A stretch of DNA of 64,000 nt from Allosphingosinicella sp. (GTDB lineage: Bacteria; Pseudomonadota; Alphaproteobacteria; Sphingomonadales; Sphingomonadaceae): assembly GCA_036386795.1 (NCBI GenBank), contig DASVUZ010000062.1, positions 23,710 through 87,709 on the forward strand, in the 5' to 3' direction. The notes below the pieces were generated by a model. It was not told the DNA's origin. It ran no database searches and was given only the letters and a program-made list of their open reading frames with translations. The position numbers and the translations under genes are program-made. Positions 38,767 through 59,268 of the stretch are shown piece after piece. Numbering within the stretch: the stretch's first letter is position 1; the number at the start of each line of letters is the position of its first letter.

Positions 38767-38854
38767 CGGAAGAGCCTCTACTGGCGCAACGCCTCAGCTC
38801 AAAGGCCCGATGCATCTGACATCGATCGGTCGACGTTGAGGCTTGCCGTGCCTC

Positions 38855-39433: not shown

Positions 39434-39449
39434 CGACCGATACCCGCCC

Positions 39450-40979: not shown

Positions 40980-41181
40980 AAGCCCACATCGCACCAAAGC
41001 AAGGTGAGGCCAAACCGAGATTGGTCGAGTATAGGCACGGGCGCCCGCGGCGGATAGTCGCCTCCCAACAATCCCCTCCGCCATCAACACTGGCGCAGCT
41101 AGCAAGGCCTCCTAAATAGGATCGAAAGAATAGAGCGGTGCCGTGCCGGAAAATCGCGGCATCAAACCCGGGGATGCCAGG

Positions 41182-44100
41182 ATGAAGTGGATCACGACCG
41201 CGCAGCTCGACGCATGGGGACGGACAAGAACGTCAGAGACCGAGCTCCCGGGCATGATCTCCGATCTTGTCCGCGCGACAGCGCCAGACATCACCGCAAT
41301 CCGCTTTCCGACCGGTGAGAAGGGCCAGGTCCGTGGCTTCGACGGCGTGCTCGACAGCTCGGTCGAGGTCCTGAATGTTCCACAGGGAAGATCCTATTGG
41401 GAGTTCGGCACCGAGGCGGGTCACCAGGCCAAGGCACTCAAAGACTTCAAAAAGCGCACCGACCAGGTCAGCGCCACCGATCAAGCGGAGGCGACGTTGG
41501 TTCTCGTCACCCCCTTCACCTGGGATTCCTCCGATTCAAAAAACAAGATCGAGGATTGGGAAAAGGCCCGCAAGAAGGAGTCCGAATGGAAGAAGGTCAA
41601 GCTGATCGACGGGGCGCAGCTTGAGGACTGGCTCGCCGAATGCCCCGCAGTGTCGGCCTGGCACGCGAAGAACACTCTTCGGGTCGCCCCGCGGGAGGGC
41701 GTGCGCAGCACGGATGATTATTGGTTTGATTTCGCGGACCGATTCGACCCCCGGCTGATCGAGGAAATGCTCCTCGCCGAGCGCGAACGTCAGGTCGACG
41801 AACTGCTGACCGGCTTGATGGGCCCGCCCCAGCCGCTGCGCTTTATCGCCGATTCGCCAGACGAGGTGACTGCGTTCGCGGTGGCCGCAATCCGCTCGGC
41901 AAAACCCGAGGTGAAGCTGTTCCTCGAAGCGCGGACGCTAGTCGTCGACACTTCCGACGCCGCGCGCGAGCTGGCGGGCAAATCCAATCTGGTATTCCTG
42001 GTCCGCGGCGAAGCGGCGCGCGCGCCGGGTCAGCTCGGCGACACTGGCCCGACCCTCGTGCCGCTCGGCCGGCAACAGGCCGTTAAAAAGGGCACCCTGC
42101 TCGAACGCCCCAGCAGCTTCGCCATGGCGAACGCGCTTGCCAAGATGAACCAGCCCCAGGCCCGCGCGGAGGCGCTTGCCAAGGGCTGCGGCCGCAGCCT
42201 CACCGCGCTTGCCCGGCAAATCCCCGGTGGCACCTGCGAAGTGCCGGATTGGGTCGAGCATGCGCAATTGCTGCTTCCCGCCATCCTTGCCGGGGGATGG
42301 GACAGTACCAACCCGCTCGATCAAGCCGTGGTGACCACGCTCGCCGGCGCCAGCAGCTATACTAATTATGAAAGCAGGATTCGCGGCTTCGTCGAAGGTT
42401 CGGACCCGGCGCTAGATCGCGAAGGCACGGTCTACAAAGTGCGCGCCCCGATGGACGCGTTCGTACATGCCGGCCACCACATTGGCCGCGAACATTTGGC
42501 GCTCCTCCGGCCGGTGCTCGAGCAGGTATTCAGCGTGCTTGATCCCGACCCCGATCCCGACGAGTCGTTTCGCTTTGGCGCGGAACGGGTGCCGCGATAC
42601 AGCGACTGGCTGCGCGATGGCCTCGCCAACACGCTGCTTTTGATCGCGCTCTGGCAGGACACCGCGCGGCTCGATTTGACCCCAGGAGAGGGGCAGGCGT
42701 TCGCCGATAAAGCCATTGGCGAGCTTCCGGGTCTCAAGACCAACGCCAGGCTCCTCACAAGTCTCAAAAACGAGCTGCCAATTCTGGCGGAGGCAGCCCC
42801 AGATGTTTTTCTGTCGGCCCTCGAGCACATGCTCGAGGGCGAGGGAGCAGCGATCCGCCCGATCTTTGATGAGGTTTATGGTCTGTCCTTCCGAACCTCG
42901 CGCCACACCGGGGTGCTATGGGCATTGGAGACGCTTGCCTGGGATTCGCGGCGGCTACGGCGCGTAGCGCTGATCCTGGCGCGCCTCGCCGAGATCGACC
43001 CCGGCGGCCGGCTGGCCAATCGTCCCGATGCGAGCCTTGCCGATATCTTCCTGCCCTGGCATCCCGGCACGCATGCGCCGGCCGATGCTCGGCTTTCGGT
43101 TGTCGACGATATCATCGCGTCGCACCCGCAGGTGGGATGGAAGCTGCTGCTCCGGTTACTGCCCGACGAGATGCGCATCACAAGCGGCACGGCGCGGCCG
43201 CGCTTGCGCGAGTCGGACGTCCCGGCACCAGCAGTGACGCATCACGACCTGGCCCTCGCCTATGATGCGCTAATCACCCGGGCGATCGCGGCGGCGGCGG
43301 GCGATCCGGCGCGCATGCAGGAACTGCTGCGGCCGATGATGCGGTTCGCGCCACAACAGCGGGCGGCGGCGCTCCGGGCGCTGGACGATACGCTCGCCAG
43401 CGCCACTGGTGAGGTTCGCGAACAGCTCTGGACCGGGTTGCGCAGCACGTTGCGGCAACACGAACGGTTTCCGGACGCTGATTGGTCGCTTCCGACCGTG
43501 GAGCTTGCCGAGGTACGCCGCATCGTCGGTGCCTATGCGCCCGCCGATCCGGTCGTGTCGGTCGCTGAGCTGTTCGATGTCCGCGCGCTTGAGCGCGACG
43601 ATGCTGCCGCCGCTGCTGAGCGCGCGCGTGTGGTCGAGAAGCTATATCTCGAGCAGGGCTCCGAGGCGGTGCTCGCGCTCGCCGGCACCGCACGGATGTG
43701 GCATCTCGTGGTGCGCGCGATTGAGGACAGTGGGCTCGACACCGCGCAGGTAGAGACGTTGCTCCGGAAGAGCTTCGCTGCAGAGCCGGGTGGGTCGCTC
43801 GCAACCGCGCTCGCCTCGGTCTACCGCCGCCGCACCGACGAGGCCGCGGCGCTCCTGCTAGTGAAGGAGCTCCACTGCGCCTCCGGCAACGACGATGCCA
43901 CCGCCGCGTTGCTGTTTGCCTGGCCAGACGAGCAAGAGACCTGGCAGGCGCTACCCAAGATCGGGACCGGCGTGGAGGATAGCTATTGGCGCCACGTGAA
44001 GCCCTTCTGGATCGAGGGATCCCCACCGCTGCTGGTCGAGCGAGTGACGCGCCTACTCGAATATGGACGGGCGATCGCTGGCCTCGAATCGGCGCTGAAC

Positions 44101-44922
44101 CGGCTGGTCGACATTCCGACCGATCTGCTGTTCCGGCTGCTCGATGCGATTGTAGACGAGATCAACAGCGGGACTGCGCAGAGCATGGTAGCGGGCATGC
44201 TGGACTATGATCTCGAACAAGCCTTCCGTGCTCTCGATGCCCGCGATGCAGATGCCCTTGAGATCGGCAAGCGGGAATATGCCTTGCTGCCGCTGCTCGA
44301 ACGACAGGAGCGGCCGCTTCGCCTGCACGGCCTGATGCTCGCGGATCCGGAGTTGTTCCACAGTATCGTACGCGACGTCTATCGCGGCGACAACGACCCG
44401 CCGCCGGATGAAGCAAAGCTCGACCCGGCCGAGCGGGGCCGCTGGCGTCAGGCATATCGATTGCTCTCGAGTCTCGACCGGACCCCCGGCTTCCTGTCGG
44501 ATTCACCGGATCACGGCGTGCTGACGGCATGGATCGACCGGGTCCGCGAGCTCGGGCGCCAACATGAGCGCGCTGAGGTGACCGACGTCGTGATCGGGCA
44601 GGTCCTAGCCCATGCGCCGCAGGACGATGCGGATGGGGCATGGCCGCACCGCTTTGTTCGAAATGAGATCGAACGCGCCGCGAGCGATGAACTGGAACGA
44701 GGCATCCAAACTGAGCGATTCAACATGCGCGGCGTCACGACGCGCGGCATGTATGATGGCGGCGATCAAGAGCGCGTGCTGGCCGACGAATATCAGGGCC
44801 ATGCGCGCGCCAGTCATCGCTGGCCGCGGACGGCGGATATGCTGGAGCGCATGGCCGCCGGGTGGGCGCGCGATGCCGAGCGCCAGGATTTGGAAGCCCG
44901 GCAGCGGCGGCTGAGGAGCTAG
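41182..44922 (+). CDS. Large putative defence protein: N-terminal nuclease-like domain, degenerate NTPase-like region, helical repeats
   Basis: 1246 aa from ATG 41182; IRFP.G...GFDG...YWEFGT; no intact Walker A (FIADSPDE at the expected place); long helical C-terminus. Confidence 0.6.
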   Translation: MKWITTAQLDAWGRTRTSETELPGMISDLVRATAPDITAIRFPTGEKGQVRGFDGVLDSSVEVLNVPQGRSYWEFGTEAGHQAKALKDFKKRTDQVSATDQAEATLVLVTPFTWDSSDSKNKIEDWEKARKKESEWKKVKLIDGAQLEDWLAECPAVSAWHAKNTLRVAPREGVRSTDDYWFDFADRFDPRLIEEMLLAERERQVDELLTGLMGPPQPLRFIADSPDEVTAFAVAAIRSAKPEVKLFLEARTLVVDTSDAARELAGKSNLVFLVRGEAARAPGQLGDTGPTLVPLGRQQAVKKGTLLERPSSFAMANALAKMNQPQARAEALAKGCGRSLTALARQIPGGTCEVPDWVEHAQLLLPAILAGGWDSTNPLDQAVVTTLAGASSYTNYESRIRGFVEGSDPALDREGTVYKVRAPMDAFVHAGHHIGREHLALLRPVLEQVFSVLDPDPDPDESFRFGAERVPRYSDWLRDGLANTLLLIALWQDTARLDLTPGEGQAFADKAIGELPGLKTNARLLTSLKNELPILAEAAPDVFLSALEHMLEGEGAAIRPIFDEVYGLSFRTSRHTGVLWALETLAWDSRRLRRVALILARLAEIDPGGRLANRPDASLADIFLPWHPGTHAPADARLSVVDDIIASHPQVGWKLLLRLLPDEMRITSGTARPRLRESDVPAPAVTHHDLALAYDALITRAIAAAAGDPARMQELLRPMMRFAPQQRAAALRALDDTLASATGEVREQLWTGLRSTLRQHERFPDADWSLPTVELAEVRRIVGAYAPADPVVSVAELFDVRALERDDAAAAAERARVVEKLYLEQGSEAVLALAGTARMWHLVVRAIEDSGLDTAQVETLLRKSFAAEPGGSLATALASVYRRRTDEAAALLLVKELHCASGNDDATAALLFAWPDEQETWQALPKIGTGVEDSYWRHVKPFWIEGSPPLLVERVTRLLEYGRAIAGLESALNRLVDIPTDLLFRLLDAIVDEINSGTAQSMVAGMLDYDLEQAFRALDARDADALEIGKREYALLPLLERQERPLRLHGLMLADPELFHSIVRDVYRGDNDPPPDEAKLDPAERGRWRQAYRLLSSLDRTPGFLSDSPDHGVLTAWIDRVRELGRQHERAEVTDVVIGQVLAHAPQDDADGAWPHRFVRNEIERAASDELERGIQTERFNMRGVTTRGMYDGGDQERVLADEYQGHARASHRWPRTADMLERMAAGWARDAERQDLEARQRRLRS

Positions 44923-45389
44923 CTCTTTCCGCTGTCGTACGATGATCCAAGCCGCCGGGCGCCAGTCCTGCGCGCTCGCGGCTTGCCGCGTGGGCAGCAG
45001 ACTCCGGGCCGGGGCGCGCATGGATCGGCGCCTGTTTGGCGGAACGCCAGCTTTTAGGATCGACGCTTAAATCGTCGACCGGGCAATTGGGTGCAAAGTG
45101 GACATTGAACGCGCGGTGATGCGACCCAGTCGCTTACGGAGAGAGGTAGGCAGACACCACGTCTGCCATGGTTGAATTTAGCCGATCGCGGAGGGGCAGC
45201 TCGCAGGCGATCAGGGGTTAGCGGACCTGGGTTCAGCTAGATGCATAAGCTGCCTGGGACCCACAAGTAGGCGTTCCCGTCGGCGGCGAGGAAGCCTAGT
45301 AGGGTGAGCTCGCTTGGCAGCCCTGCACTGACACCACCTCGGGCGTGGAGCTATCGTCTTCGCTCAGGAATCCGCCTTCCGCGTCTTGG

Positions 45390-48300
45390 CTACGGAGCCA
45401 GATTTTGTCGCCGCCGCTTTCTTGCTCGCGGGGCCCTGTTTGACCGCCGCTTAGCTGCGCGGTCTAGTGCCGCGACGTCGAGCACGACAATGTCGGTGCG
45501 CGCGCGCAACTCCGGCGACAAGTCCGCCTCGAGTAACGCCGCAAGCTCCTGCCCGGAGGTCGGCACCACTCCATCCCTGCGAGCGGGCGGGGGTGCGACA
45601 TCGCCGAACCAGAAGATGAGCAACACTCCGTAGCCATCGGCACCCTCGTCAGCAACATAGCCTTGAAGTTGGCCTTCAGCCGCGTGCCAAAGGTCAGAAT
45701 GGTAATGGCGTTTCGCTTCGATCGGCAGGTTACGAGAGGCGCCTGATACGATGAGAACATCGGCACGGCTGTCGTCACGGCGCTGCGCTTCAGGGAGCGC
45801 GACAGCAATCCGGTACTTCACAAGCCGGTCATGAAGCCGGGTCAACGTGATGTCGCGCGCAATGTTCTCGATCTTGGGCGTCGTCGGTTTTCCATGCGCG
45901 TCGGTATTCCAATAGTCACGCCATGGGCTAGTGGCGCCCGTGCGCAGCTCCCGCGCGAACCGCCGCAGCTCGTTGACGACGACCGCCCGCAAATCCGCGG
46001 CGTTGACGGGAGCGCGACCCGCAAGCGCCTCGGCGACCGCCGCCGCATCAGGGGGGAGAAACTCAGCGTCACGCCGGGCGCGGCCCTGCTGCTCGGCCGC
46101 ATGCTTTAGAGCTGCATCCCATTTAGGATAGGCGGTGAGCTTAGCCTTCAGCGCGGCGATCGCGGCGGTAGCGTCGGGCGTGGCTAGCGCAGCGAGCCGA
46201 TTGAGGAAGGCGTTGCCGGCGTCGCTCTGGCGGTGTGATTGCAGAACCCGGCCGCTGCGCCGCTCGACATAGGGCTCCGCATGAGGCGCCACAAGTGCGA
46301 ACATTCCGGCCGCAATCGCCACCTGCTCCACGCCACTGCCGCGTGGAAAAACGTCGATCAGCCGGGTGCCCGATATCCCGTCGCACAAGGCGAGCAGATC
46401 CGCGTCGTCATTGCCAGACAGTGGATCACGGCCGCCGAGGGGGTCGAGCGCGAACAAGGTGAGGCCCCAGATCGCCCGCTGCTTTGCGGGCAGTGCCGAG
46501 CCGGCGAGAGCCGCGGCAGCGATTCCAGCCAGCGCGGCCCGGTCTAGGTGCTTTGCGGCCACCGCGATCAGGGTGCGCAGCGTGTCGGGCGGGAGCGCGG
46601 GATGGCGGGTCAGCATCGCCGCGCTCGCGAGCGCCACCGCTTTTCCGCCCCCATCGTCGCCGGCCTGATGCCAGTGGTTGCTGTGCCCGCCATGGGCGAG
46701 GATCGCCTCCCAGTAGCTCTCGAGGGCGGCGGCGCCGGCGACCGGGTCCAGGTTGAGTCGGTCCCAGGCCCAGCGCTCGAGGGCCTCGCGCGACCCGCTG
46801 GGGTGGGTGATCCAGCCGCTGCGCAGCACGATTATCGCGAGCGTGAGCGGCAGCGTAAGGAGGTCATAGTCGCCTTCCGACCGGAGCCGGTCCAATCCGG
46901 CCATCGCGGCATATTCGGAATAAAAATGGCCTCCCTTCGCCTCGAACTGGCCAAGTGTTTCGGGATGGACACCGGGAGTGTCGGCAGTCGCGAGGACGCG
47001 CCAGCCGGTTAGGATGGCGTCGAGCACCGCATCGTCGCTTTCGGCGGCGACTCGCTCCAGCCCCGACTGAGCGGCTTCCTTCTTGTCGCGCGGGTGGAAA
47101 TAGATTTCGGCAGCCCAGGCGAGCGTCGACTTGTAAAGCGCGCTGGCGATGCCGGCGATGTTACGCCGGAGCGTAGCGAGCTGCTTCGAGCGACGCTTTG
47201 CTTCGGCCTGACCGGTCTGACGCGCCCGCGTATACTGGCGCATCCGCCAGCGTTCGATGTCGACGACAGTGAGCTCGCGCAGCAGCCGCTTGCCGCTGCG
47301 CCGCATCGATTCGAGAAATGCGAATAGGCGCCAGTAAGCGTCCTGGCCAACATCGTAGCGCCGTGCGAGGTTCACCGCGATCGCGAGCGGACGTCGTTGA
47401 ATTGCGCCCTTCGCCTCCGCCGCGCGCGTCACGAGATGGTCGAGGATCTGGCCGTTCGGCGAGCCAGCGACCATGATATAGTAGGTGCCGATCATCCACG
47501 GGCCCTCGGCCGGATCGTCGGTCCCGAGGATCGATTCGAACAAGGCTAGCTCGCGCGACGGATTCGCCTTCAGCCATTCGGCCACGGCCGGCCGGGTGGC
47601 GTTGCGGAGATTGGTCCATTTGTCTTCGCGAGCGTGGACTAGCCAGCGCCACAATCGCGGCGCATCGAGGTCCGGGGTGCCGCGGATCGCAGCAGCAAGA
47701 GCATGGTCGAGAAGGTCCTCGACCTCGACGTCATGCCGACGCCCGCGCTCGGATGACAGCCAATCAAGCGGCGCATCGAACAGCGCCGGGCGCGGGTGCG
47801 CGACGAGGAAGCTGCGTAGGCCGTAAAGGCGCATGATCACATTATCATCGGGCAGTCGTACGAAATCGCCGATTAGGCTGGTGAGGTCGGCGAGGGTGAT
47901 CAGCTCGGGGGGCATCGCGCTCAATAACTCGGCGCGCACGGCCTCGCGCGCGGCCGAACGCGGCTCGGCGGAGAGCGCGTCGAAGAGGTCGCGGCGCGCT
48001 GCAGCGGGATCCGCCTGACCGTTAAGCCAAGCGTCGGTGGCCCGGGTGCGCTGCCACTCTGGCCGGGCCGGATCGAGGGCGATGGCTCGCAAGCGAGGTT
48101 TGAGCGACGCCACCGGCGGGCCGGCGCCGAGCACCTCATAGACCGTCATCATGCGGTGGGTGCCGTCGCCCTTTTCGATTGCGTGCGCTAGATCCTCGCT
48201 CAACTCCTCGCAGGCGAGCCCGCCGACCGACGTGGTGCCAACGTCTGAGGCGCGAAAATAGGGGTCGTGACGGTCAAGGTTGGCCAGCATTGCTCGCTTG

Positions 48301-49505
48301 GCGGCTGTGTCGAACACCGCGGCGTCACCATAAACGAGAGCGCTGACCGCATCGGCCTCGACCAGCTCGCGCGCCTCAGCATGCGCGCCGAACTTGGCGA
48401 GGTGGGCGGCGAACCAGGCGTAAAGCCCGCGCAGGTCGGTGGGCGCGCGGCCGTCCTTGCCGGTGATGAGCGCCGCGGCGCGGCCCAACGGCAGCGCCGC
48501 AGTGCTTGCGCCGCCGATTATCGCGCGGGCGAGCGCGCGGCCGCCGAGGAACTCGGCGATCGTCCGGTGAACGGGTTCGAACGCTTCGCCTTCACCGCGA
48601 AACAGCGCTGAGCCGACAAGATCGTCGACGAGCGGCGGGTCGAAACCCAGGGCGCTCGCCGGCAGATTGGCGCGCGCGTCGCCCGAGCGGGGCAGCGCTC
48701 CCGAGCGCCAAAGGAAGCGGCTACCAGTCACGAGCAAGAAGAGGCTCGTTGTGGCGGCCGCGGTGAGGATCGCCTCCGCGCTGGCGCGGCTGCGGTCAAG
48801 TCGATGGACCTTATTCTCTTCGTGGGCGAGCGCGCTGGTCGCCTGATCGAACAACGCAAACCGGGTGGTCGGCCATGGCTTGTCGCCGATCACCGCCTCA
48901 CGCAGCAACTTGAGGCTGAGTGGGCTTTCGAGCAGGCCACCGGCGCCCATCGCGAGCGCGCGGTCGACGAACGACTCGGGGTCGGCCTCGCCCAGCGCCT
49001 GCAGCACGGCGAGCGCCTCGGGGATTTCGAGCGGGAGCAGTTGCGCCACGGTGATGGGAGCGCCCGCGGTGGTGCGGCGGATCGCGTCGAGATCGGCGCC
49101 TTTCTGCCAATCCTCTGCACGGCAGGTCAGCCGCCACTGCGGCGTGCCGGCGGCGCGGATCGCGCCCACCAGCTGATGGACCTTGTCGAGATCGGTGGCA
49201 CCGACGCGATACTCGTCGAGTGCGTCGAGGAACAGCGTGCCGCCTGGCAGGTCAACGCTGTTGTTGATCAGTTCGCGGACCTTGATCACCGTAGTGCCGG
49301 CGGCGGCTGCCTCGACTTCGAGCACCGTCGTTTTGCCGATGCCGGGTTCGCCGAGTAGGACGAGATAGGGCCGGTCGCGCAGCGATGAGATGGTCGCCGC
49401 CGCCGCGGCGTCGCGGCCTCCATCTAGAATTTGGACTCGTCGATCGAGCATCGTTTGTCCGTCTATGGGCTCGCGAAATTGGCGCCGAGCGGTGTCCGAG
49501 ACCAA
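45390..49505 (-). CDS. STAND/NACHT-like NTPase with C-terminal PD-(D/E)xK nuclease
   Basis: Walker A GEPGIGKT, Walker B LFLDALDE, RLTCR, QLLPL; C-terminal RADVLI...IEAK..Y...W. Confidence 0.8.
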   Translation of the reverse strand: MVSDTARRQFREPIDGQTMLDRRVQILDGGRDAAAAATISSLRDRPYLVLLGEPGIGKTTVLEVEAAAAGTTVIKVRELINNSVDLPGGTLFLDALDEYRVGATDLDKVHQLVGAIRAAGTPQWRLTCRAEDWQKGADLDAIRRTTAGAPITVAQLLPLEIPEALAVLQALGEADPESFVDRALAMGAGGLLESPLSLKLLREAVIGDKPWPTTRFALFDQATSALAHEENKVHRLDRSRASAEAILTAAATTSLFLLVTGSRFLWRSGALPRSGDARANLPASALGFDPPLVDDLVGSALFRGEGEAFEPVHRTIAEFLGGRALARAIIGGASTAALPLGRAAALITGKDGRAPTDLRGLYAWFAAHLAKFGAHAEARELVEADAVSALVYGDAAVFDTAAKRAMLANLDRHDPYFRASDVGTTSVGGLACEELSEDLAHAIEKGDGTHRMMTVYEVLGAGPPVASLKPRLRAIALDPARPEWQRTRATDAWLNGQADPAAARRDLFDALSAEPRSAAREAVRAELLSAMPPELITLADLTSLIGDFVRLPDDNVIMRLYGLRSFLVAHPRPALFDAPLDWLSSERGRRHDVEVEDLLDHALAAAIRGTPDLDAPRLWRWLVHAREDKWTNLRNATRPAVAEWLKANPSRELALFESILGTDDPAEGPWMIGTYYIMVAGSPNGQILDHLVTRAAEAKGAIQRRPLAIAVNLARRYDVGQDAYWRLFAFLESMRRSGKRLLRELTVVDIERWRMRQYTRARQTGQAEAKRRSKQLATLRRNIAGIASALYKSTLAWAAEIYFHPRDKKEAAQSGLERVAAESDDAVLDAILTGWRVLATADTPGVHPETLGQFEAKGGHFYSEYAAMAGLDRLRSEGDYDLLTLPLTLAIIVLRSGWITHPSGSREALERWAWDRLNLDPVAGAAALESYWEAILAHGGHSNHWHQAGDDGGGKAVALASAAMLTRHPALPPDTLRTLIAVAAKHLDRAALAGIAAAALAGSALPAKQRAIWGLTLFALDPLGGRDPLSGNDDADLLALCDGISGTRLIDVFPRGSGVEQVAIAAGMFALVAPHAEPYVERRSGRVLQSHRQSDAGNAFLNRLAALATPDATAAIAALKAKLTAYPKWDAALKHAAEQQGRARRDAEFLPPDAAAVAEALAGRAPVNAADLRAVVVNELRRFARELRTGATSPWRDYWNTDAHGKPTTPKIENIARDITLTRLHDRLVKYRIAVALPEAQRRDDSRADVLIVSGASRNLPIEAKRHYHSDLWHAAEGQLQGYVADEGADGYGVLLIFWFGDVAPPPARRDGVVPTSGQELAALLEADLSPELRARTDIVVLDVAALDRAAKRRSNRAPRARKRRRQNLAP

Positions 49506-49600
49506 CTTTATCGGACAGCGGAGCGGGATCGGCCCGCTGTCGATTTGACCCGGAACCGGCGGGCGGCTCGCGGGTATGTCTGTTAGGAGGAAGGCGAACG

Positions 49601-49918
49601 GTGGACAAGAAGCTGCATCGTCGCCGCGCGCGGCGCGCCTGGCCGAAGCTCGTCGCCGCCGCGAAGCGCGGTAAGCCGCTTAGCTACAAGGAGCTCAGTG
49701 CCAGCATCGGAGAGCATTGGCGCGCCGCGAGCTGGTTTCTCGGCGTGATCCAACGCTGCTGCGCGAAGATGGGGCTGCCGCGGTTGCAGGCGCTTGCGGT
49801 TAACCAGCAGACCCGCATTCCCGTCAAGGGCTATTCCGGCAGCCGCGGAAGGCGCGCGCACGCGCGAGAGGTCGAGCGGGTACGCGAGCAATGCTGGCCT
49901 AAGAAGGCGCCGTTCTAA
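49601..49918 (+). CDS. Small winged-helix-like protein
   Basis: GTG start with AGGAGG RBS at 49585-49590; LSYKELS..IG...FLGVI..CC...GLPRLQALAVN. Confidence 0.65.
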   Translation: MDKKLHRRRARRAWPKLVAAAKRGKPLSYKELSASIGEHWRAASWFLGVIQRCCAKMGLPRLQALAVNQQTRIPVKGYSGSRGRRAHAREVERVREQCWPKKAPF

Positions 49919-50927
49919 GCCTAACCGATCTTCAGGTGCTCGGCTCGAGCCGCGACAAGAGATATTGCCGAGCCACTCACTTTACCCAAACGGGTAGAGG
50001 CCCCCGGCGTCGCAGCTGCCGGCGCAGCAAGGCTCTCGGCTATATCTCGGGACAGACGCTACAGCGGCTCATCGTCCTGACCCACTGGGGAATAGAAACC
50101 CGTGCAAAAGGAGACGCCGCGGCCACTTCTGTCAACGACGTAGGCATCACAATGACCGAGAGCTGCGCAGCGAACCCTGATCAGGGTACAGCCTCCGCAT
50201 TGCTCCCACAGCTCATCCACGAGCCGAAAACGAGCGTCCAGCCGTGGCTCGATCTCGTCTTAATCTCGGTCCGCTTCCAGCTCTCGCAGACTCCTTGCAT
50301 TTCCTTTCACCAGTGGAAACCCTCTCTGCGGGGATAATCGACTACAATCAGAGCTTTATGCCTGCTCTGACGATGAAGGCTACCGCGAGTAGGTGAAAGC
50401 GTAGTGAAAGGAATTGAACTTGGTAGACGGTTCCCTCGAAGACATTCGCCACCCTTCGACCTCTCCTTCAGTGACCGTACCGAATGGCGCTCCATGTCTC
50501 AGGCGGGCCTGAGGTCCGGCGCCGACATTCTCTTATCTCCTCACATAGCGTGTGAGACGCGGTAGCGAGGCTAAGTCACAGGGATCAAATCTTTATTTTG
50601 GCACGTCGTGCGAAGCGCAGCTGCGAAAAAAGATAAGGCTAGGATAAGATATCCGCTGACCGACAGGCGAAGGGGGCCCTCCAGCCAGTACGGTCGGGGT
50701 ACGGTCCGGCCGCCGGCGGAGGCGAACCCACGGTTAAACCCCAACAAATCGCGGAGCCGATTGCCGAGAGATTTGATGATTTTTTCCGGGGGATCCTCCG
50801 CTTGCGGGCACCGCGCGCGAGACGGCAGTAAACCGCTATTGTCGGCTCGCCTGGCTACGGCAAATTTGTCCATATTTCGTTCCACCATTCCAAATGCGCC
50901 AGCCGAGCGCCATAGTGCGATGATCAA

Positions 50928-53900
50928 GTGATCAGGAGCTCGACCCTGACGAAATCCGAACCGAGATTGCCGGAAAGCGCCGCGGACGAGCACGACTTCT
51001 GGAAGCTGGGGCCCAGGAGGTTCGAGCACCTCGCGCGGGCGCTGCACGGGGCGCAGCCGGGGATATTCGGCGACAGCCTCTATGGTCCGGATGGCCAAAT
51101 CCAATTTGGTGCAGACCACGTAGCGCATCGGCGCACCAGCTCAGGCCCCGAGCTCGAAGTCGGCCAAAGCAAAGCCTATCGTAGGTTTACCCCTCAGCAG
51201 GTTAGGACGGCCGCGGACCAGTTCCTGGAACATTGGGACGTCCATTGGAGCGGCAAGAACGTCCGTCGTTTCATCCTGTTCGTGGGGTGCGCGATCAAGT
51301 CTCGAGCTGCCCACGACGAGATCCTCACCCAGGTCGCCCGATTCGACGAACTCGGCATCGAGTTCGTGGTCTGGGACGCGAACGCGATCTACGATCGACT
51401 GGCAGGCGCACCAACGGTGGTCCGCGGCCATCTCGACCAAGGGTGGTATGAGCGCCTCTTTGGCCCGCAGGTGGGCCCCCTCACTGGCCTGCAGAAGGAC
51501 CTTCAGCTCGGCGATTTCGGTGCAGCAAACGTTGCCGCTTATGTGGGCCAGCTCAACCTTGCACAGAGTGCCCTGGTTGACGAGCTTAAGCGAAGCATTC
51601 GCCGCGGGGAATCAGAACGAGCGCGAATGACGCTCGAGCAGGCACTGTTCCAGTCAGCCGCTGCGTCTGCCTCAGCGCCAGAGACGAGAGCGAGCATGCT
51701 GCGTCTTCTCGCGGGCCTGCTGATCCGACAGGAGGCGTTCGAGCGGGCGAAAGCACTTTTCGACGAAGCCGACGCCCTGGATGGCGGGTCATCGGAGCGT
51801 GGCCGCGCTATCCTCGCCCTGGAAGCGATAGGGCCGGAAGCGGCCCTGTCCCAAACCGCAGAGACGACATCCCCTGAAGTCATCGAGGTCCGCACGATCG
51901 CGTACCTCAGGCTGAACCAAGTTCAAGAGGCGCTAAGGAGCCTAGCGGACGTTCCCAAAGGGCCAACCGGAGCTGAGACCCTCAGGCTTAGGGCGCTGGC
52001 GCAGCTATTGATCGGCGACCGCGCGAACGCCGTCTCATCCGCCCGCGAGGCCGTTTCACGGGATTCGGACAATCGGGCTTGCCGCCAGATGTTGGCGATT
52101 TGCCTGTTCCACCATGCGCTTTCTCCTGTTGTTGAGCCTATTGTTGGAGAATGGCCACACCCCGTTGATCAGCCACTCGTGCGCGAGAGCGACGACGCCG
52201 TTCGCGACCTGACCGAGGCGTCTGAACTCTTTGCAGATCTGTCCAGCCAGCCCGACCTTCGCGATCGAGACTCGATGGCAGCATGGCTCCTCGGCACGCT
52301 CGCATGTCTTCCTCGCCGTCGTTCCGAGGCTCAGCTATTGCTTGAGCAGCTACTCCTCGGTGATCGGTTTTCCGCGCCAGCGGTCGCCTGGGGAATGGCA
52401 AGGGGGTTGGATTTCGATCGAGTGGCTGCCGGGCGCCAACTTGATGCTCTCATTGCTGAGCGGCCGGATGATCTCGAAATCCGTCTCATTCGAATTGCTC
52501 TGGCTGTGCAGACCCGTGAATTGCCGCTCGCCAAGCGCCTGCTGAAAGAGGGAATGGCGAAGCCGGAGGCAGCGGGCGAGCAGCCGTCGTTCGCCTACTG
52601 GTCAGTAGTGCTTGACCTAGAGGGCGGCCGCCCGCTTTCGAAAGAGGCGATGGCGACTTATCCTTGGGTCGCATTCCGAGCAGCTCTTCGACTGCGCCCC
52701 CGTAAGAAGCGGCTTCAGGAGATCGACCGCCTGGCGAAGGATGCGGCCGCTCCTGGGGGCGATCGTCGAGTTCTATTGGCGGCGCTCCAACACCTCCTGG
52801 AGGGCGGACGGCATAATACGCCGGCCGACGCCGCTCACATACTGATAGAGGAGGTGGACACCGCTGAGGCGATCGCTGTGGCCGCACATGCGCTTTATCA
52901 GGCCGACCGCCCCGGGGAGGCCTTGGCGGCGCTCCAAAACGTGTCGGCCTTCCCCGACTCGAGACTCCCGGTAGATTTGGAACGACTGCGCGTCGCAAGC
53001 TTGACCGCCTCAGGCGAACTCCTCGAGGCGACGCGGGAGAGCCGCCGCATCGCGGAGACGACGCTGTCCCCGGGCGATCTCTGGCAATCCATCAACCTTC
53101 AATTGGCTGTCGGCGCCGTGCCTGCCGCCATCGCTCTGTACGAGCGGCATGCCGACAAATTGGCCGATCCACACCCCGGACATATCCACCTGGCTGCCCT
53201 TGCGCTCCATCACGACCGAGGCGCCGCGATCCGGATTACGCGGACCCTTGCCAGTCATGTTCCGGACGAACTCGTCACCGGTACGTACGGATTGGCGGCC
53301 AAGCTGAACCTGGCAGCCGAGCAAGACATGCTGGTTGAGCGGATACAGGATCTTGGAAGGCGCGGCGCCGAAGGCGTCCAGATGATCTCGGACATCGATA
53401 CTGTCGTGGAGATGATGAAGAAGCGCCGGGCCGCGGCGGACGAGGCCTACGAGAAGTACCAGCGCGGGCACATTCCCATCCATGCGATGGCCCGGTCCAA
53501 TCCGGGAGCGCTCGCGCAGCTCTACCTAGGCAGACTGGTAGTGCCGGAACCGGAGGGCGCGCAACCGCCCCCGTTATTTGCCCGCTACGGGCGCCGGTAT
53601 GAGCAGCCTTGGCCCGCCGAAGCGAGCGACGTCGTCCTGACCGCCGACGTTACGGCTCTGCTCACGGCTCATGGCTCGGGCATACTCGATTCCGTTGAGC
53701 GCGCCTTTCGACCGATCAGGATCGCGCCTGACATCCAAAATGCGCTGGCGGAGATTCGCTCGAGCCTGGAACCGGCCCAACCATCCCGCGTCGAAGCGAA
53801 GCGGGCAGTTTTGAGCCTTCTTGATGATTGTCGACTGAGCTGCCGGTCCTCGGACCTGGAAATTGATACCTACAAGGTGCGCTGGGATCTGGAGGGGAAT

Positions 53901-56900
53901 GATCCAGCGAATACGCTCAACCTTTCGCGCCTCGTATCTCTAATGAAGATAGACAACCGGCGTGAGCTGGGCGCCATCCGGAAGAAGCTGGGGACGACGA
54001 TCGTGGAGCCAGCTATCGGGCCAGCGCCGAAAGCGGGCAGCCAGATTAGCTTGGACGGGGTGATGGTTGTGACCCTGGCCGAGGTCGGAGCCCTCCCTCA
54101 TCTGCTGAACTCCTTTAAGCTCGTAATTGAGCCCGAAGAAGCTGCCACTCTACGGTCGGAGATCGCTGCAGATGAGCAAGCTGCGGTGGTATTGGCCTCG
54201 CTGAACAAGCTCATAAGCCGACTGGCGACAGGGATCGGGGACGGCACCTACTCCTTTGTCCCGCCTACGTCTGACCACGACGACCCATTAGGCCGGTCCT
54301 TCTTCCAAGTGGTCTCTTCCATGAAGCAGCCGGGGTCGACTCTTTGGATAGACGACCGATTCACCACCGCCTTTGAGACCCCATTCTTCCGCACAGTGAC
54401 CACTGCGGAGATTCTCGGGGCTCTGGCTAGGTACGAGCGGATCGACGGTCGGGTGCGGTCGGAATGTCGTCAGCGGCTGCGGAAGGCCCATTGGCTCTTC
54501 CTCGACATCCACGCCGAGGAAATCACCCAGTACCTTCGCGAAGCCGTTGCCGATGGAGACGTCAAGGCAACGGAAGACCTCGCAATCCTTCGGCGGGGCG
54601 CCGCCGCAAACGATCTCAATCGTCGCTGGTTTCAGTTTCCGGATGATGAGGCCGCCAAGAAAGGCGCGCGCGGCGAGCTGCCGTTCCTTCTCGACACTGG
54701 TAACGCCGCCGCGGACGTGCTTCGCGAATTATGGAATGACGAAAGCCTTGCGATCGAGGATGCTAAGGCAGCTTCCTCGTGGCTTGCCGAGTACCTCGAT
54801 CCTGAGTTGCTTTCGCTGAGCGTGCTCGCGCCCGAAGATCCGCGCAACGACCTGCTCGTCGGGCTCCATCTGGCCCAGTTGGTGATGGTGGGCATCCAGC
54901 TCCTTCCGCCCAAGTCGAAGCGCGATCGTCTCCGCTCCTACCTAGACTGGGTGTGGGAAACCGTGATCGACGAACGCTTACGTATGCGGCCGGAGATGCA
55001 GGAGCCGTTCGAGGCGGCTCTCGAGCGATATCTGATCGATCTGCTGGAGGACGACCCTTCACTGCACAGACCGACTTGGATCGCGCTTGCCGGAAACCTG
55101 ATCAATTCGCTGCCGAAAGCGCCGCGCCTTCGATTGCTCGAACGGCCCAAAATCCGAGGCGCCTTCGGAAACCCCGATCACGGCAATATAACAATCGACG
55201 AGCTGCAATTTGACGAGGTCGATTTCTGGAAGGCCGCCGCCTCCGCAAGCGTCAATCAGGCTGCCACACTGAGCACGGTGACAGGGAAACAGGCCACCCT
55301 GCGCCTCCGCCCGGCTACGGATAGGCACGCGGCCAGCCTCGACCTAAAGATCGGCAGGCGAACCTTGCACCTCGATGACTGGCCGGCGAGGGTTGCCGCA
55401 CCAGCACGGGACATCAGGCGCACAGCGATCGCCGAGAAAGCGGACCTTCTCGATATGGCGTCAGATCGGCTGGATCGGCTGGCGGCAGATCTCGCGCGGG
55501 TGCGCCCCGCTTGGAAGCGTCCCATGCGCGTGATGCAGCTAGCGGGCAAAACATTGCCCTCTTGGTACGCGGACCTGGAGGGCGATCTCCGACAGCAGAA
55601 GCCCTTTAAGGCTACAGTGCTGGTCCCTCAGGAGCTGCCGCCGATCCTGGCCTACCTCCGACTGTCCACCGACACAGATCAGGCGGTCGGAGACCTCATC
55701 CGCGAACGTGGACTTATGGTGACCATCCAGCGGTGGAGCCATCTGCCAGTCCCGCCGCCCGAAGCTCTTCTCGATGAGATAGAGCGCGCTACGCCAGCCG
55801 ACATAAACGCACTGATGAACCTCGTGACCGATGCGAGCCGCGGTGTCTGGAGCAGGATGTTTGTGGCGGGAATCTTGTGGGCCCGCGGCCAGGGCGATGA
55901 GGAAATTCGTCCCCGTCTAGCTCGCGCGGTACTCGAGATCGCCTCAAAGGAGGGCGTAGCCGAAGAATGGGCACTCTACAGCACCGCCGCCCATTTCTTC
56001 GCTTCTGAGTTTGCTCGGCTGGACGGGTGGTCCGATCTCACAGCTCGCCAACAACTCGCCGTTGCCTGGGTTCATGCGGGCGAGGTGGCGCAGCGCCTGA
56101 TGGATGCCACTAAAGATCTTCGCCGCACGGCGAGGTGGCTGGAAAGTTCGCGTCTGATTTCGCCGCGAACTCTTGTCCGAGAACGCGCCGGCTATGCGGG
56201 CGACTTCGCCGATCCGTCGCATGTGACGCCGGCACGGCTTCGGCTATTGGCTACCGGGCCGTATCTTGTGGAATTGGTGCGGGACCCCGTATGCGGCCCA
56301 GAAGCCAAAGAGCTCCTCATCGATCATATGGGGGAACGGACCGAAAGCGGCCTGCTGCCGCGCTCGGATACGCTTCAGGCCGGGCTCTGCATCAGTGACT
56401 GTCTCGGCAGCTATCTCGCTGCTGACCTCGGGAGAATGACCGATGAAATCCTCCCTGGGTCGATAATATTCTCCAGAGACGGTCTCACGGACCTGCTTCG
56501 CAGCTCCTTGGAGGAGCCAGCCGACTCGAGAGCGTTCCGTGTGGTGTGGAGTCATCTGCTCGGCGTCACGAGCGGCTTCCTAGCGAGTTCCTCCCTATCG
56601 GCGCTGGCGAGGCGGCGGGTGTACGATCTCGACCTTACTTCGCAGGAAGATGGTCTGCGCCACGCCAGGGAGGTCCTACAGGCGATCACAAGGCTTGCCG
56701 GGGCGAACGGATGGCTTGACCTCGCTCCCGCTATCGACGCCGCGTCGATAGCGCTCTCGCGCGAAGCGCGGGAGCCGGAGGACGAGGATATCCGTTCGCT
56801 GAGCACCATGTTGGAGATCGCATTCTGGCGGGCCCGCCTGGAAGACGATCTCGACGCCCGCACCGCCATCTTCGCCAGAGATCTCGAGCGCCTCGCAGCG

Positions 56901-57017
56901 CACCCAAGGCTCAAAACGGCAGCTGAAGGGGCAGCCGGTCGGTTCGCTACGGCCCTCGCAGGCCGCCACGCGGCGCCGTTTATCGACCTCCTCGCGAAGC
57001 TGCGGGCGCAACGGTAG
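50928..57017 (+). CDS. Giant putative defence protein: Mrr/REase-like nuclease + TPR + PIN-like domain(s) + helical C-terminus
   Basis: 2029 aa; FEHL..LYGPDGQ.QFGAD..QSKAY; TPR-like helices; ADVTALL and LWIDDR PIN-like motifs; no Walker A seen. Confidence 0.7.
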   Translation: MIRSSTLTKSEPRLPESAADEHDFWKLGPRRFEHLARALHGAQPGIFGDSLYGPDGQIQFGADHVAHRRTSSGPELEVGQSKAYRRFTPQQVRTAADQFLEHWDVHWSGKNVRRFILFVGCAIKSRAAHDEILTQVARFDELGIEFVVWDANAIYDRLAGAPTVVRGHLDQGWYERLFGPQVGPLTGLQKDLQLGDFGAANVAAYVGQLNLAQSALVDELKRSIRRGESERARMTLEQALFQSAAASASAPETRASMLRLLAGLLIRQEAFERAKALFDEADALDGGSSERGRAILALEAIGPEAALSQTAETTSPEVIEVRTIAYLRLNQVQEALRSLADVPKGPTGAETLRLRALAQLLIGDRANAVSSAREAVSRDSDNRACRQMLAICLFHHALSPVVEPIVGEWPHPVDQPLVRESDDAVRDLTEASELFADLSSQPDLRDRDSMAAWLLGTLACLPRRRSEAQLLLEQLLLGDRFSAPAVAWGMARGLDFDRVAAGRQLDALIAERPDDLEIRLIRIALAVQTRELPLAKRLLKEGMAKPEAAGEQPSFAYWSVVLDLEGGRPLSKEAMATYPWVAFRAALRLRPRKKRLQEIDRLAKDAAAPGGDRRVLLAALQHLLEGGRHNTPADAAHILIEEVDTAEAIAVAAHALYQADRPGEALAALQNVSAFPDSRLPVDLERLRVASLTASGELLEATRESRRIAETTLSPGDLWQSINLQLAVGAVPAAIALYERHADKLADPHPGHIHLAALALHHDRGAAIRITRTLASHVPDELVTGTYGLAAKLNLAAEQDMLVERIQDLGRRGAEGVQMISDIDTVVEMMKKRRAAADEAYEKYQRGHIPIHAMARSNPGALAQLYLGRLVVPEPEGAQPPPLFARYGRRYEQPWPAEASDVVLTADVTALLTAHGSGILDSVERAFRPIRIAPDIQNALAEIRSSLEPAQPSRVEAKRAVLSLLDDCRLSCRSSDLEIDTYKVRWDLEGNDPANTLNLSRLVSLMKIDNRRELGAIRKKLGTTIVEPAIGPAPKAGSQISLDGVMVVTLAEVGALPHLLNSFKLVIEPEEAATLRSEIAADEQAAVVLASLNKLISRLATGIGDGTYSFVPPTSDHDDPLGRSFFQVVSSMKQPGSTLWIDDRFTTAFETPFFRTVTTAEILGALARYERIDGRVRSECRQRLRKAHWLFLDIHAEEITQYLREAVADGDVKATEDLAILRRGAAANDLNRRWFQFPDDEAAKKGARGELPFLLDTGNAAADVLRELWNDESLAIEDAKAASSWLAEYLDPELLSLSVLAPEDPRNDLLVGLHLAQLVMVGIQLLPPKSKRDRLRSYLDWVWETVIDERLRMRPEMQEPFEAALERYLIDLLEDDPSLHRPTWIALAGNLINSLPKAPRLRLLERPKIRGAFGNPDHGNITIDELQFDEVDFWKAAASASVNQAATLSTVTGKQATLRLRPATDRHAASLDLKIGRRTLHLDDWPARVAAPARDIRRTAIAEKADLLDMASDRLDRLAADLARVRPAWKRPMRVMQLAGKTLPSWYADLEGDLRQQKPFKATVLVPQELPPILAYLRLSTDTDQAVGDLIRERGLMVTIQRWSHLPVPPPEALLDEIERATPADINALMNLVTDASRGVWSRMFVAGILWARGQGDEEIRPRLARAVLEIASKEGVAEEWALYSTAAHFFASEFARLDGWSDLTARQQLAVAWVHAGEVAQRLMDATKDLRRTARWLESSRLISPRTLVRERAGYAGDFADPSHVTPARLRLLATGPYLVELVRDPVCGPEAKELLIDHMGERTESGLLPRSDTLQAGLCISDCLGSYLAADLGRMTDEILPGSIIFSRDGLTDLLRSSLEEPADSRAFRVVWSHLLGVTSGFLASSSLSALARRRVYDLDLTSQEDGLRHAREVLQAITRLAGANGWLDLAPAIDAASIALSREAREPEDEDIRSLSTMLEIAFWRARLEDDLDARTAIFARDLERLAAHPRLKTAAEGAAGRFATALAGRHAAPFIDLLAKLRAQR

Positions 57018-57093
57018 CCTCGAGTCGCGCGAGGTTCATCCCTGTCACATCGCGGTAGCTCGGCCTCTCTGAAACTTACCTGATGGCGTGGCC

Positions 57094-58125
57094 TCAGCCG
57101 AAGGACAAGCTGAGGAAATTGTCGGTGCCGTGTTGGTTCGAACCGAACCGCACCTTATAGTCCGGACCCAGCGCGGCGGCGTGCGTCTCTGCGCTCGCGG
57201 GATCAGGGTGAAGTCCGGCAAAATGCCAAGGAGCAGAGCGCACGACGCCGTAGCCGCGATACCAGCCGGGATTGGAGGCATCGAGGAAGGGCATCAGGTT
57301 CTGAATCGGAAACCCACCGAACCACAGGCCGAAGCCCACGCCCCAGCCGCTTTCGTCGGGCTCGATACTCGAGCTGACCAGTCCGACGATCTCACCGGCC
57401 TCGTTGAACAAGGGACCGCCACTCATCCCCGAGCGCCAATTCGCCTTGAGCTCGACGATCGGCCAAGGACGTGACTGGCCGAGCCCCTGCGGATGGATGG
57501 CTACGACCTCCCCGATCGCGCCGTACATCCGCTCGACGTATCGGGGCTGCTTGGGCAGCGGTTCATCCTGTACCAATCCGAGTTCGGGGTATCCGATTGC
57601 CAGAAGGCGGTCGCCTATCGCCGGAGGTGTGCCCGAGCAGCGCAACGGCAGCGGCGCCAGCCGCTTCGCACGTTCTTCAGACTGAATAGCGAGGCTGAGC
57701 CGCAGGCAGTCCGCCAGGATCTTCGAACCGCTCTTGCCGGAGACGAAGTTGTGAAACGGATCCTGCGGACTCAGGTCGACGAAGCCATGCATGCCATTCA
57801 ACGGCGCGAACAGCTCCTGTGGCAATCCGACCGTCCCAAAGACGATGCCGATGTTGAGCATCGCGACCGGTATCTCCTCGAACTCCGGCGGCGGCTTTGC
57901 GAGGTCGACATGCTCGAAGATGTGCTGCGCGGTGAGGAAGCCGCGGAATGGATCAGCGCAGAAGGCTGTGCCGAGGCCGGTCAGATGCCCGGTCTTACGA
58001 TTGACGGAAAGCAATGGGAGAATTGATTCGCGCACTCCGAACGGATCCTCGATACGAAACTCCGCCGGGTCTTGGTCGGACTTGGGAAGGACTGGGAATG
58101 GCACGCGACAGAAACCTCCCTCCAA
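57094..58125 (-). CDS. Trypsin-like serine protease
   Basis: LTAQH (His), ADCLRL (Asp candidate), GMSGGP (Ser); no signal peptide. Confidence 0.85.
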   Translation of the reverse strand: MEGGFCRVPFPVLPKSDQDPAEFRIEDPFGVRESILPLLSVNRKTGHLTGLGTAFCADPFRGFLTAQHIFEHVDLAKPPPEFEEIPVAMLNIGIVFGTVGLPQELFAPLNGMHGFVDLSPQDPFHNFVSGKSGSKILADCLRLSLAIQSEERAKRLAPLPLRCSGTPPAIGDRLLAIGYPELGLVQDEPLPKQPRYVERMYGAIGEVVAIHPQGLGQSRPWPIVELKANWRSGMSGGPLFNEAGEIVGLVSSSIEPDESGWGVGFGLWFGGFPIQNLMPFLDASNPGWYRGYGVVRSAPWHFAGLHPDPASAETHAAALGPDYKVRFGSNQHGTDNFLSLSFG

Positions 58126-58203
58126 TGCCTTATCGTCGATGCGATGAGGCTCTCACTCCGCGGCCATCGCTTGGCGGATATTGACGACCACGCCTAAGCA
58201 ACT

Positions 58204-59148
58204 TTGGTGATCTCGCTCCACGCCTTTGTTGACGATTCCACAAGCGACGTCGATGATCGCCGCCTGTTCCTCGCCGCCTACATTAACGGGGCTGGCCCCT
58301 GGATCGATTTCGGTCATGAATGGCGTGCAGCGCTCGCCGAGCCCCCGGGCATCGCTTATCTGAAGATGGCGGAAGCGCAGAATCTGAGAGGCGAGTTCAA
58401 AGGCTGGTCGGCGACCGATCGGGACTCAAAGATCCTTCGCCTGGCGCACGTGATCGCGGCGAGTCGGCCTTGGTCGGTATATTGCTCGGTCAGCCGGAGG
58501 GACTATGCGCGGATCGTAGCGCCGGCCGCGCCCTATCCGCTCAAACAGCCTTATTTCTGCTGCTTCTGGGGGATCATTCGTACGTCGGCCGATTACCATC
58601 TGCACCTCGATAACGACCGTCCCGCCGACACTCACCCCATTCCGCCGCTTCAATACGTGTTCGACGAGCAAGGCGGGCTCGGGACCGATGCGGCGCTCTG
58701 GTATGCGTGGCTCAAGCAGACACAGGAACCGCCGATCGCCGCGCTGATGGGCGATCAGCCTATTTTCGGCGACGACAAAGCCATGATGGGACTGCAGGCG
58801 GCGGACATGCTCGCCTGGCACGTGCGGCGGCGGCACGAGCGCGGCCCGGACGGCCTTCAACCGATCCTCGACCTGCTGCTCGGAGACGGCGCCTGTCGGG
58901 AAGTCGACGCTGCGGCGCTTGAGCTATGGGCTAGGGAATTTCGTCGCATACCTGGGGTCGCTGGTGTCCAAACGAAGCGGGAGTGGCACGAGACCCGAGC
59001 TGCGGCACTAGCAGCTATTGAGGCTGGCGAGTCTCCCCCGGCTACGAGCTTGGCACGTCTGCGCTGGCTGAGTTTCAAGGTAGCTTGGCGTCGGCTGGCG
59101 AAAGGCTGGCGACGTCGCGTTCGACGAAGGAACCGACGGAGCCGTTAG
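58204..59148 (+). CDS. DUF3800 family protein
   Basis: AFVDDS at the N-terminus, YVFDEQ, GLQAADMLAW; basic C-terminal tail. Confidence 0.8.
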   Translation: MVISLHAFVDDSTSDVDDRRLFLAAYINGAGPWIDFGHEWRAALAEPPGIAYLKMAEAQNLRGEFKGWSATDRDSKILRLAHVIAASRPWSVYCSVSRRDYARIVAPAAPYPLKQPYFCCFWGIIRTSADYHLHLDNDRPADTHPIPPLQYVFDEQGGLGTDAALWYAWLKQTQEPPIAALMGDQPIFGDDKAMMGLQAADMLAWHVRRRHERGPDGLQPILDLLLGDGACREVDAAALELWAREFRRIPGVAGVQTKREWHETRAAALAAIEAGESPPATSLARLRWLSFKVAWRRLAKGWRRRVRRRNRRSR

Positions 59149-59184
59149 CGCCCCGGTTTTCGTTCCTGACATTGTGGACGGCAG

Positions 59185-59206
59185 GTGAGGTAACAAACGA
59201 GGGAAC
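59185..59206 (+). promoter_or_regulatory. Putative integrase arm-type site (right end)
   Basis: GTGAGGTAACAAACGAGGGAAC, 16/22 identical to the left site. Confidence 0.5.
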
Positions 59207-59248
59207 GGTGCCACTTTCACCGCCATTTTCTCTCACAAAGTACCGCAG

Positions 59249-59268
59249 CCTCCGTCTCCGCCAGAGCC
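59249..59268 (+). repeat. attR core (duplicated tRNA-Ser 3' end)
   Basis: CCTCCGTCTCCGCCAGAGCC, identical to 20696-20715. Confidence 0.92.

Follow-up and report, generated by a model that had tools for sequence, protein, structure and literature searches.

A giant single-gene protein with a predicted nuclease head and PIN-like modules from an integrative island of Allosphingosinicella, a probable relative of TGP conflict proteins

In this work we have analyzed a stand-alone gene for a very long protein in a stretch of 64,000 nucleotides of Allosphingosinicella sp. (contig DASVUZ010000062.1, assembly GCA_036386795.1, positions 23,710 to 87,709 of the forward strand), referred to below as the window. 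The gene occupies positions 50928..57017 of the + strand, where the frame is open for 2029 codons counted from GTG at 50928, as described in an earlier note made from the sequence. An identical protein has been recorded (P0002, 2016 aa) with TTG at 50967 as the start codon, and this is likely to be the true start since the N-termini of the homologues agree with it; residue numbers throughout refer to the 2029-aa frame. Besides the recorded self-copy a word search returned 17 relatives of 36-79% identity, most of them covering 86-100% of the query; 15 are roughly 1,900-2,040 aa long and two are shorter (1,790 and 1,125 aa), and the named ones come from the genera Sphingobium and Allosphingosinicella. 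Because these homologues align over the whole length, the giant frame is, as judged from the alignments, a real gene and not a chance one. Its sequence was met in public sequencing runs in soil-metagenome DNA only, with no match in any RNA run.

The N-terminal head of the protein (aa ~24-180; 50997..51467, + strand, as are all domains described below) is a putative PD-(D/E)xK domain (restriction endonuclease fold, REase) of the Mrr-like "QxK" kind, assigned from its modeled topology, structural matches and a conserved motif. The motif consists of E33, Q59-x-G61-x-D63 and E77-x-x-Q80-x-K82, and the segments FEHLARAL (aa 32), GADHVA (aa 61) and VGQSKA (aa 78), which had been listed previously, were located in this region. 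The AlphaFold2 (AF2) model of aa 1-235 has a mean predicted local distance difference test score (pLDDT) of 84.5, exceeding 95 in the core, and its elements follow the order alpha-beta-beta-beta-alpha-beta, with D63 placed right before beta2 (strand 64-70) and E77, Q80 and K82 on beta3. The top Foldseek matches of this model in the Protein Data Bank (PDB) were FokI, Cap4, EcoT38I, Avs4, a CdiA-CT nuclease toxin, Can2, Card1 and BamHI, with weak E-values (7e-3 to 0.25) but probabilities up to 0.99; the matches consistently represented one fold. The head is carried by about 81 of the 162 family sequences examined, with the motif kept in about 76 of these 81. Among head-bearing members there is no variation at G61 and D63 and hardly any at Q59 and K82; Q80 was found in 71 of 78, and an acidic residue occupies position 77 in 67 of 76. 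The Pfam model Mrr_cat (PF04471) gave no match to the giant protein at E<=1; we therefore call the head, from its predicted fold and motif, a PD-(D/E)xK nuclease with an Mrr-type Q-x-K variant and not a member of Mrr_cat. The proposal of a DNase-like head with an Mrr-like motif is thus sustained as far as the REase fold and the conserved D63/E77/Q80/K82 are concerned, but not with respect to the Pfam family.

The head is followed by a predicted tetratricopeptide repeat (TPR) or similar helical repeat array (aa ~186-815; 51483..53372). The giant protein alone produces a weak TPR signal (Pfam TPR_19, E 0.66). A profile of 23 diverse family members matched only TPR proteins in the PDB (IFT70, coatomer epsilon, IFT56, designed TPRs and kinesin light chain; E 5.6e-4 to 0.03, profile positions 207-670), which backs the TPR-like helices suspected earlier, and in the same region the relatives give TPR and ANAPC3 matches in Pfam, passing the cut-offs of TPR_2, TPR_14 and TPR_19. 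Next to the array lies a helix-turn-helix domain (HTH; aa 823-890, 53394..53597) which matches the full length (positions 1-70) of the Pfam profile PF24407, HTH_upst_double_PIN, with 43.3 bits at a gathering cut-off of 27 and is modeled by AF2 as three helices. The same profile was matched by all 16 close and all 23 diverse relatives, and on this sequence evidence the giant protein is a member of the PF24407 family. In the literature searched we found no paper dealing with the function of this family.

A reference point for the protein is provided by the TGP (TPR-GreA/B-C-PIN) systems, described as stand-alone genes in which variable N-terminal effectors, REases among them, are joined to a constant core (Kaur, Iyer, Burroughs, Aravind, eLife 2021, PMC8195603). 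In the model put forward there the Gre domain engages the rim of the RNA polymerase secondary channel, PIN cuts the extruded transcript and the head serves as a back-up suicide effector (PMC8195603). One TGP protein, Agp of the Bab/Agp system from E. coli ECOR25, senses phage T5 and triggers abortive infection, and the response is lost upon a point mutation of its GreA/B-C domain (bioRxiv 10.1101/2024.11.07.622273). In canonical TGP proteins the segment that comes before PIN aligns with the HTH of the giant protein (hhalign 95.4%, E 1.7e-8).

In the AF2 model of the middle part of the protein (aa 815-1570, 756 aa; pLDDT 81.8, predicted template modeling score (pTM) 0.67) the HTH is followed by two alpha/beta units, aa 903-1025 and aa 1039-1215. 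The first corresponds to PIN-like module 1 (aa ~900-1036; 53625..54035), which carries D907 and E924 and was delimited by Pfam PF20698 matches of homologues, hhalign, AF2 and conservation. The second, PIN-like module 2 (aa ~1037-1215; 54036..54572), delimited by PF20698, hhalign and conservation, has the full PIN topology and contains W1140-x-D1142-D1143-R1144, E1161, R1185 and E1198. The motifs singled out earlier in this region are found as ADVTALL at aa 906 (nt 53643), LDGVMVV at aa 1042 (nt 54051) and LWIDDR at aa 1139 (nt 54342). PF20698 positions 1-46 correspond, by way of homologues, to aa 905-952 of module 1; positions 104-134 fall on aa 1118-1148 of the giant protein, in module 2, and a weak match from a genome-wide search pairs positions 8-134 with aa 1048-1148. 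The whole profile covers module 2 of a 1439-aa relative (P0163) above the cut-off, with 35.6 bits, and maps onto module 1 in another relative. Profile-profile comparison aligned aa 904-968 with aa 1041-1102 (P = 9e-4), pairing the two PIN-start segments in the very register in which they had been proposed.

The two modules were also compared with an alignment of ten canonical TGP PINs from other genomes. Module 1 matched it with 93% (E 2.7e-7) over the first 43 columns only and module 2 with 62% over the full length, while aa 897-966 spliced to aa 1106-1215 gave 95.3% (E 2e-8, score 53.4), also over the full length. In 154 family representatives the acidic residues are conserved at D907 (99%), E924 (92%), D1142 and D1143 (100% each), E/D1161 (95%) and E1198 (99%), as is R1144 (99%), no acidic position being conserved in the stretch from aa 925 to 1141. 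In module 2 the Asp of the first strand (D1043) occurs in just 28 of 153. By sequence and model module 1 has the look of a PIN domain reduced to its N-terminal two-thirds, and module 2, by sequence, that of a complete PIN whose early catalytic residues have been lost in most of the family. Since the conserved acids are divided between the modules (D907/E924 and D1142/D1143/E1161) with none conserved between them, a single predicted catalytic centre is likelier than a pair of RNases acting independently. Two arrangements would account for it: a site shared by both modules, or a single PIN interrupted by a partly duplicated insert. Of the tandem PIN-like RNase modules postulated in the earlier note, the two PIN-like modules are borne out by AF2, by Pfam through the relatives and by hhalign, but their action as two independent RNases is unlikely.

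A sub-question, which does not compete with the overall interpretation, is whether the region represents a single PIN fold split by an insert of ~140 aa derived from partial duplication, instead of two PIN domains side by side. We regard the split fold as a possibility of slightly less than even weight: the spliced segments match the canonical TGP PIN better than either module alone and the conserved acids are confined to these two pieces, but module 2 by itself aligns with the full length of the TGP PIN and passes the Pfam cut-off in P0163, the two modules align with each other, and the architecture has been named "double PIN" by the Pfam curators.

The distribution of the acids bears on a different reading of the whole protein, in which the REase would be the only effector and the HTH and PIN-like modules would be non-catalytic and serve in nucleic acid binding or sensing, making the protein a DNase-only abortive-infection sensor. 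Neither module alone has the full set of conserved acids, D1043 being rare and module 1 devoid of the late Asp residues; the third acidic position of the canonical TGP PIN ("FD") is Gln in the clade of the giant protein; and Agp was not found to act against T5 on its own, independently of Bab (bioRxiv 10.1101/2024.11.07.622273). Conservation of D907, E924, D1142, D1143 and E/D1161 at 92-100% together with R1144 is nevertheless more in keeping with a metal-binding catalytic site than with a scaffold, and members with non-nuclease heads (TIR, trypsin, PNPase) retain the same PIN residues, so that we consider the DNase-only reading unlikely.

The PIN region is connected by a predicted helical linker (aa ~1216-1415; 54573..55172), delimited by AF2 secondary structure, modeled as helical at aa 1251-1413 and showing weak in-register similarity to the tail that follows PIN in canonical TGP proteins (P 0.003), to a small beta-rich domain (aa ~1418-1485; 55179..55382), a candidate permuted GreAB-C domain. 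For aa 1420-1483 AF2 predicts the order beta-beta-alpha-beta-beta-beta-beta with pLDDT of ~85-90; the FKBP-like GreA/B-C shape is a five-stranded sheet around one helix. The Pfam profile PF24388 (Permuted_GreAB-C) was detected in three of 16 close homologues (E 8.8e-5, 2.1e-3 and 0.1), at positions equivalent to aa 1423-1475, in four of 23 diverse members (best E 3.2e-5) and, within giant open reading frames (ORFs), in two of six further genomes; the match of one distant member was checked and lies at the equivalent place. From this coincidence of model and homologue matches, the presence of a permuted GreAB-C-like domain at aa ~1420-1485 appears rather probable. The previous statement that no GreA/B-like segment exists in the protein is thus probably wrong, and the C-terminal ~800 aa, thought to be helical, are not purely so.

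The remainder of the protein (aa ~1486-2029; 55383..57014) was recognized as a conserved region in an alignment of 156 family sequences, in which D1509, R1531, Y1547, R1578, R1602, P1607, W1714, H1716, D1759, S1828 and W1874 are nearly invariant. A match of aa 1683-1735 (55974-56132) to the AEP-like, primase 1D-like profile PF24387 (E 0.009; 20.8 bits and E 7e-4 in the genome-wide search) overlaps the invariant W1714-x-H1716; it was found in the giant protein only, in 0 of 38 relatives and in 0 of five other genomes, and was judged to be due to chance. Something new could lie in two features, although we think this reading as a whole improbable: both PIN modules may contribute to a composite single active site (D907/E924 of the truncated module 1 with D1142/D1143/E1161 of module 2), and the C-terminal region, with D1509, R1531, Y1547, R1578, R1602, W1714-x-H1716 and D1759, may be an undescribed enzymatic or RNA polymerase-sensing domain instead of a passive helical tail. 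We found no description of a PIN arrangement with a site composed from two modules. The 1439-aa relative P0163 (L012 6953-11272, - strand) ends ~220 aa past PIN module 2 and has neither the Gre-like nor the C-terminal region; it may be an intermediate between the canonical TGP proteins and the giant form.

A module for nucleoside triphosphate hydrolysis is missing from this architecture: no P-loop NTPase of the STAND/NLR-like, Avs-type kind was found, there being no Walker A motif and no match to an NTPase family in Pfam, PADLOC and NCBIfam scans, in agreement with the earlier note. Sequence searches of the PDB gave nothing with the single protein and one spurious match with a profile built from the 16 close homologues.

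An exhaustive search with aa 823-2022 retrieved 750 representative clusters (50% identity) at E<=1e-3 and 243 at E<=1e-30, the representatives being mostly 1.9-2.25 kaa long. In 401 genomes sampled across the phylum PF24407 was detected in seven, in open frames mostly of 1,450-2,080 aa (one frame of 939 aa lies on a 2.8-kb contig); it was absent from all 15 other genomes belonging to the same taxonomic family. The N-terminal heads vary on a constant core: the REase is found in about half of the sequences examined, the other heads being PNP_UDP_1, TIR/SEFIR, Trypsin_2, SMEK_N, NNH2/5, NACHT-type helical domains and HNH-like or Cap4-like sequences. The protein is no unusual one-off; it is typical of a large family which has a Pfam model for its HTH already and is related to the published TGP systems. 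As judged from these sequence relationships, it adds one more member to a known family of predicted defence function, partly catalogued in Pfam, and is no new kind of system. A literature search returned no paper describing the giant HTH-double PIN-permuted GreAB-C architecture.

Swappable heads on a constant core are the pattern described for TGP (PMC8195603). This pattern was counted in favour of a role in defence, as were the sporadic distribution, the location in an island that also holds an integrase, att repeats and defence-like genes, the stand-alone character of the gene and the validated anti-T5 role of Agp. Relying on sequence, models and analogy, we consider that the giant protein is probably a stand-alone conflict protein devoid of an NTPase, most likely directed against phages, from a family that is an expanded relative of TGP. 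We infer its mechanism from the TGP model (Kaur et al. 2021) and from Bab/Agp. Docking of the protein on RNA polymerase, or on a transcription complex that a phage has taken over, would be the task of the Gre-like domain, perhaps together with the HTH, and the PIN unit would cut the transcript, probably with one catalytic centre made up of D907/E924 and D1142/D1143/E1161. The TPR array and the C-terminal region would be engaged in sensing of the trigger, in auto-inhibition, or in both, and the N-terminal nuclease would be released as a DNA-degrading, terminal effector of abortive infection. A protein that destroys both DNA and RNA, as suggested in the earlier note, is in these terms a reasonable prediction.

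Several observations weigh against this interpretation. In the giant protein itself PF20698 stays under its cut-off (15.9 bits, with 27.8 required), and aa 1214 (54567-54569), which lies within a conserved E-T motif just past PIN module 2, is Ala in this protein (P0001) and its closest relative P0003 but Glu in 95% of the 154 representatives. Foldseek searches of the 756-aa model against the PDB and BFVD gave no PIN or Gre match; the list, dominated by long helical-repeat proteins with one short HTH, is uninformative with regard to these two folds. All PF24388 matches are under the cut-off (best 22.5 bits, cut-off 27), the giant protein has none, and hhalign detected no similarity between its Gre-like region and the GreA/B-C region of canonical TGP proteins. 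The C-terminal ~540 aa, however conserved, found no family or structure match that would explain them. The order of domains is also different, being TPR, HTH, PIN, PIN, linker, Gre-like and C-terminal region in the giant protein and TPR, GreA/B-C, (HTH) and PIN in TGP. The PADLOC scan of the protein gave no match and the NCBIfam scan only a chance-level one (SctY, E 0.044, far under the cut-off). Finally, no activity, toxicity or phage phenotype is on record for the giant family.

The gene resides in a 38.5-kb integrative island (20696..59268) defined by a tRNA-Ser gene at its boundary (20618-20710), a tyrosine integrase (20827-22032) and two direct repeats, 20 bp long and perfect, one at 20696-20715, where the tRNA-Ser gene ends, and the other at 59249-59268. 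The GC content over the giant gene is 0.61-0.64, as against 0.66-0.70 in the flanking pst/phoU region. The island, which adjoins the phoB-phoU-pstBAC operon, contains copper-resistance genes and a run of defence-like genes. On the opposite strand, 1.4 kb upstream of the giant gene, a 1371-aa protein is encoded (45390-49505, -) with the N-terminal P-loop GEPGIGKT and only weak AAA_16/nSTAND3 matches; from its sequence it looks like a STAND-like sensor (STAND, signal transduction ATPases with numerous domains). A 299-aa fusion of a nucleotidyltransferase (Polbeta/NTP_transf_2) with HEPN, i.e. an MNT-HEPN pair in one chain, is encoded at 35143-36042 (-). Further ORFs of the island had no Pfam match at E<=0.01: 41143-44922 (+, 1259 aa), 39840-41105 (-, 421 aa), 36171-37235 (-, 354 aa) and 37405-38766 (-, 453 aa). 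The ~600 bp upstream of the giant gene (50340-50966) have a lower GC content (0.58) and no convincing ORF.

The gene contexts in the window and at five other loci (L001, L002, L003, L014 and L015) all differ, and the giant gene is stand-alone, with no conserved neighbours. As candidate partners we discarded the adjacent genes for a trypsin-like protease and a DUF3800 protein, absent from the contexts of the homologues, and the ~1,100-aa ORFs upstream of two distant members, which are unrelated to each other. In an Allosphingosinicella metagenome-assembled genome another conflict-type giant gene (L002 1-4303, +), encoding more than 1768 aa with a PNP_UDP_1 head, adjoins the homologue, which suggests that such genes cluster in defence islands. 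We conclude that the gene was acquired horizontally, together with a tRNA-Ser integrative island rich in other defence-like genes.

That the gene rides an integrative island could also point to a non-immune role, either in the service of the island (addiction, exclusion of competitors) or as a transcription-coupled housekeeping or regulatory factor. No PADLOC model and no experimental record of defence exist for the protein, and one homologue (L003) is located among ordinary metabolic genes. Set against these points are the immunity-type heads (TIR, PNPase, trypsin, NACHT-type helical domains and nucleases) swapped on a constant core, the sporadic distribution, and the homology of the HTH-PIN unit with TGP proteins, one of which is a validated anti-phage component; a non-immune role thus seems very unlikely to us.

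Taken as a probable anti-phage conflict protein, the giant protein represents an abundant, TGP-type, transcription-linked branch of predicted immunity, comprising at least 750 clusters at 50% identity. To our knowledge Agp is the only TGP protein that has been studied, and it needs a partner effector. The branch described here, with its fused predicted DNase, no partner and no NTPase, would offer a convenient single-gene model for asking whether sensing takes place through Gre-like docking on RNA polymerase, whether PIN acts as a first line of defence and how a TPR array gates a nuclease. The genome at the same time gains one more predicted defence gene in an island that already holds several.

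Among known systems, the nuclease heads of Avs4, Cap4, Can2 and Card1 were among the best structural matches to aa 1-235, and in those proteins too a sensor part switches on the nuclease, which is a fused effector. The switch there is a STAND ATPase or cyclic nucleotides, whereas the giant protein has no NTPase and no SAVED or CARF domain. DS-3, found with DefensePredictor, is a validated single-protein defence in which catalytic mutants lose defence (Science 2026, PMC13092281), and it resembles the giant protein in consisting of one protein and having its PIN split inside the polypeptide; the comparison was made by published description only, according to which the arrangement is a different one, the PIN of DS-3 being split between the N- and C-termini. 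With respect to the PF24407 family the HTH domain shows no difference, and two PIN-like modules lie downstream of it as the family name implies.

The closest parallel is with the TGP systems themselves. Both are stand-alone genes with a variable N-terminal effector on a TPR and PIN core, the HTH-like segment and PIN are homologous (hhalign 93-95%), and the frequencies in genomes are similar (7 of 401 for the giant family, by PF24407, and 11 of 401 for PF20698). The giant protein differs in its length (~2,020 aa, against about 1,100-1,470 aa in TGP), in its duplicated or split PIN, for which PF20698 remains below its cut-off, in a Gre-like domain that is permuted at best and undetected by profile in the protein itself, and in the extra conserved C-terminal region of 540 aa. 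Agp, being a TGP protein, is the only experimental anchor for proteins of this kind. Its signal passes by way of an N-terminal amyloid motif to Bab, which is a separate membrane effector, whereas the giant protein has a predicted nuclease head of its own, no partner gene and another order of domains.

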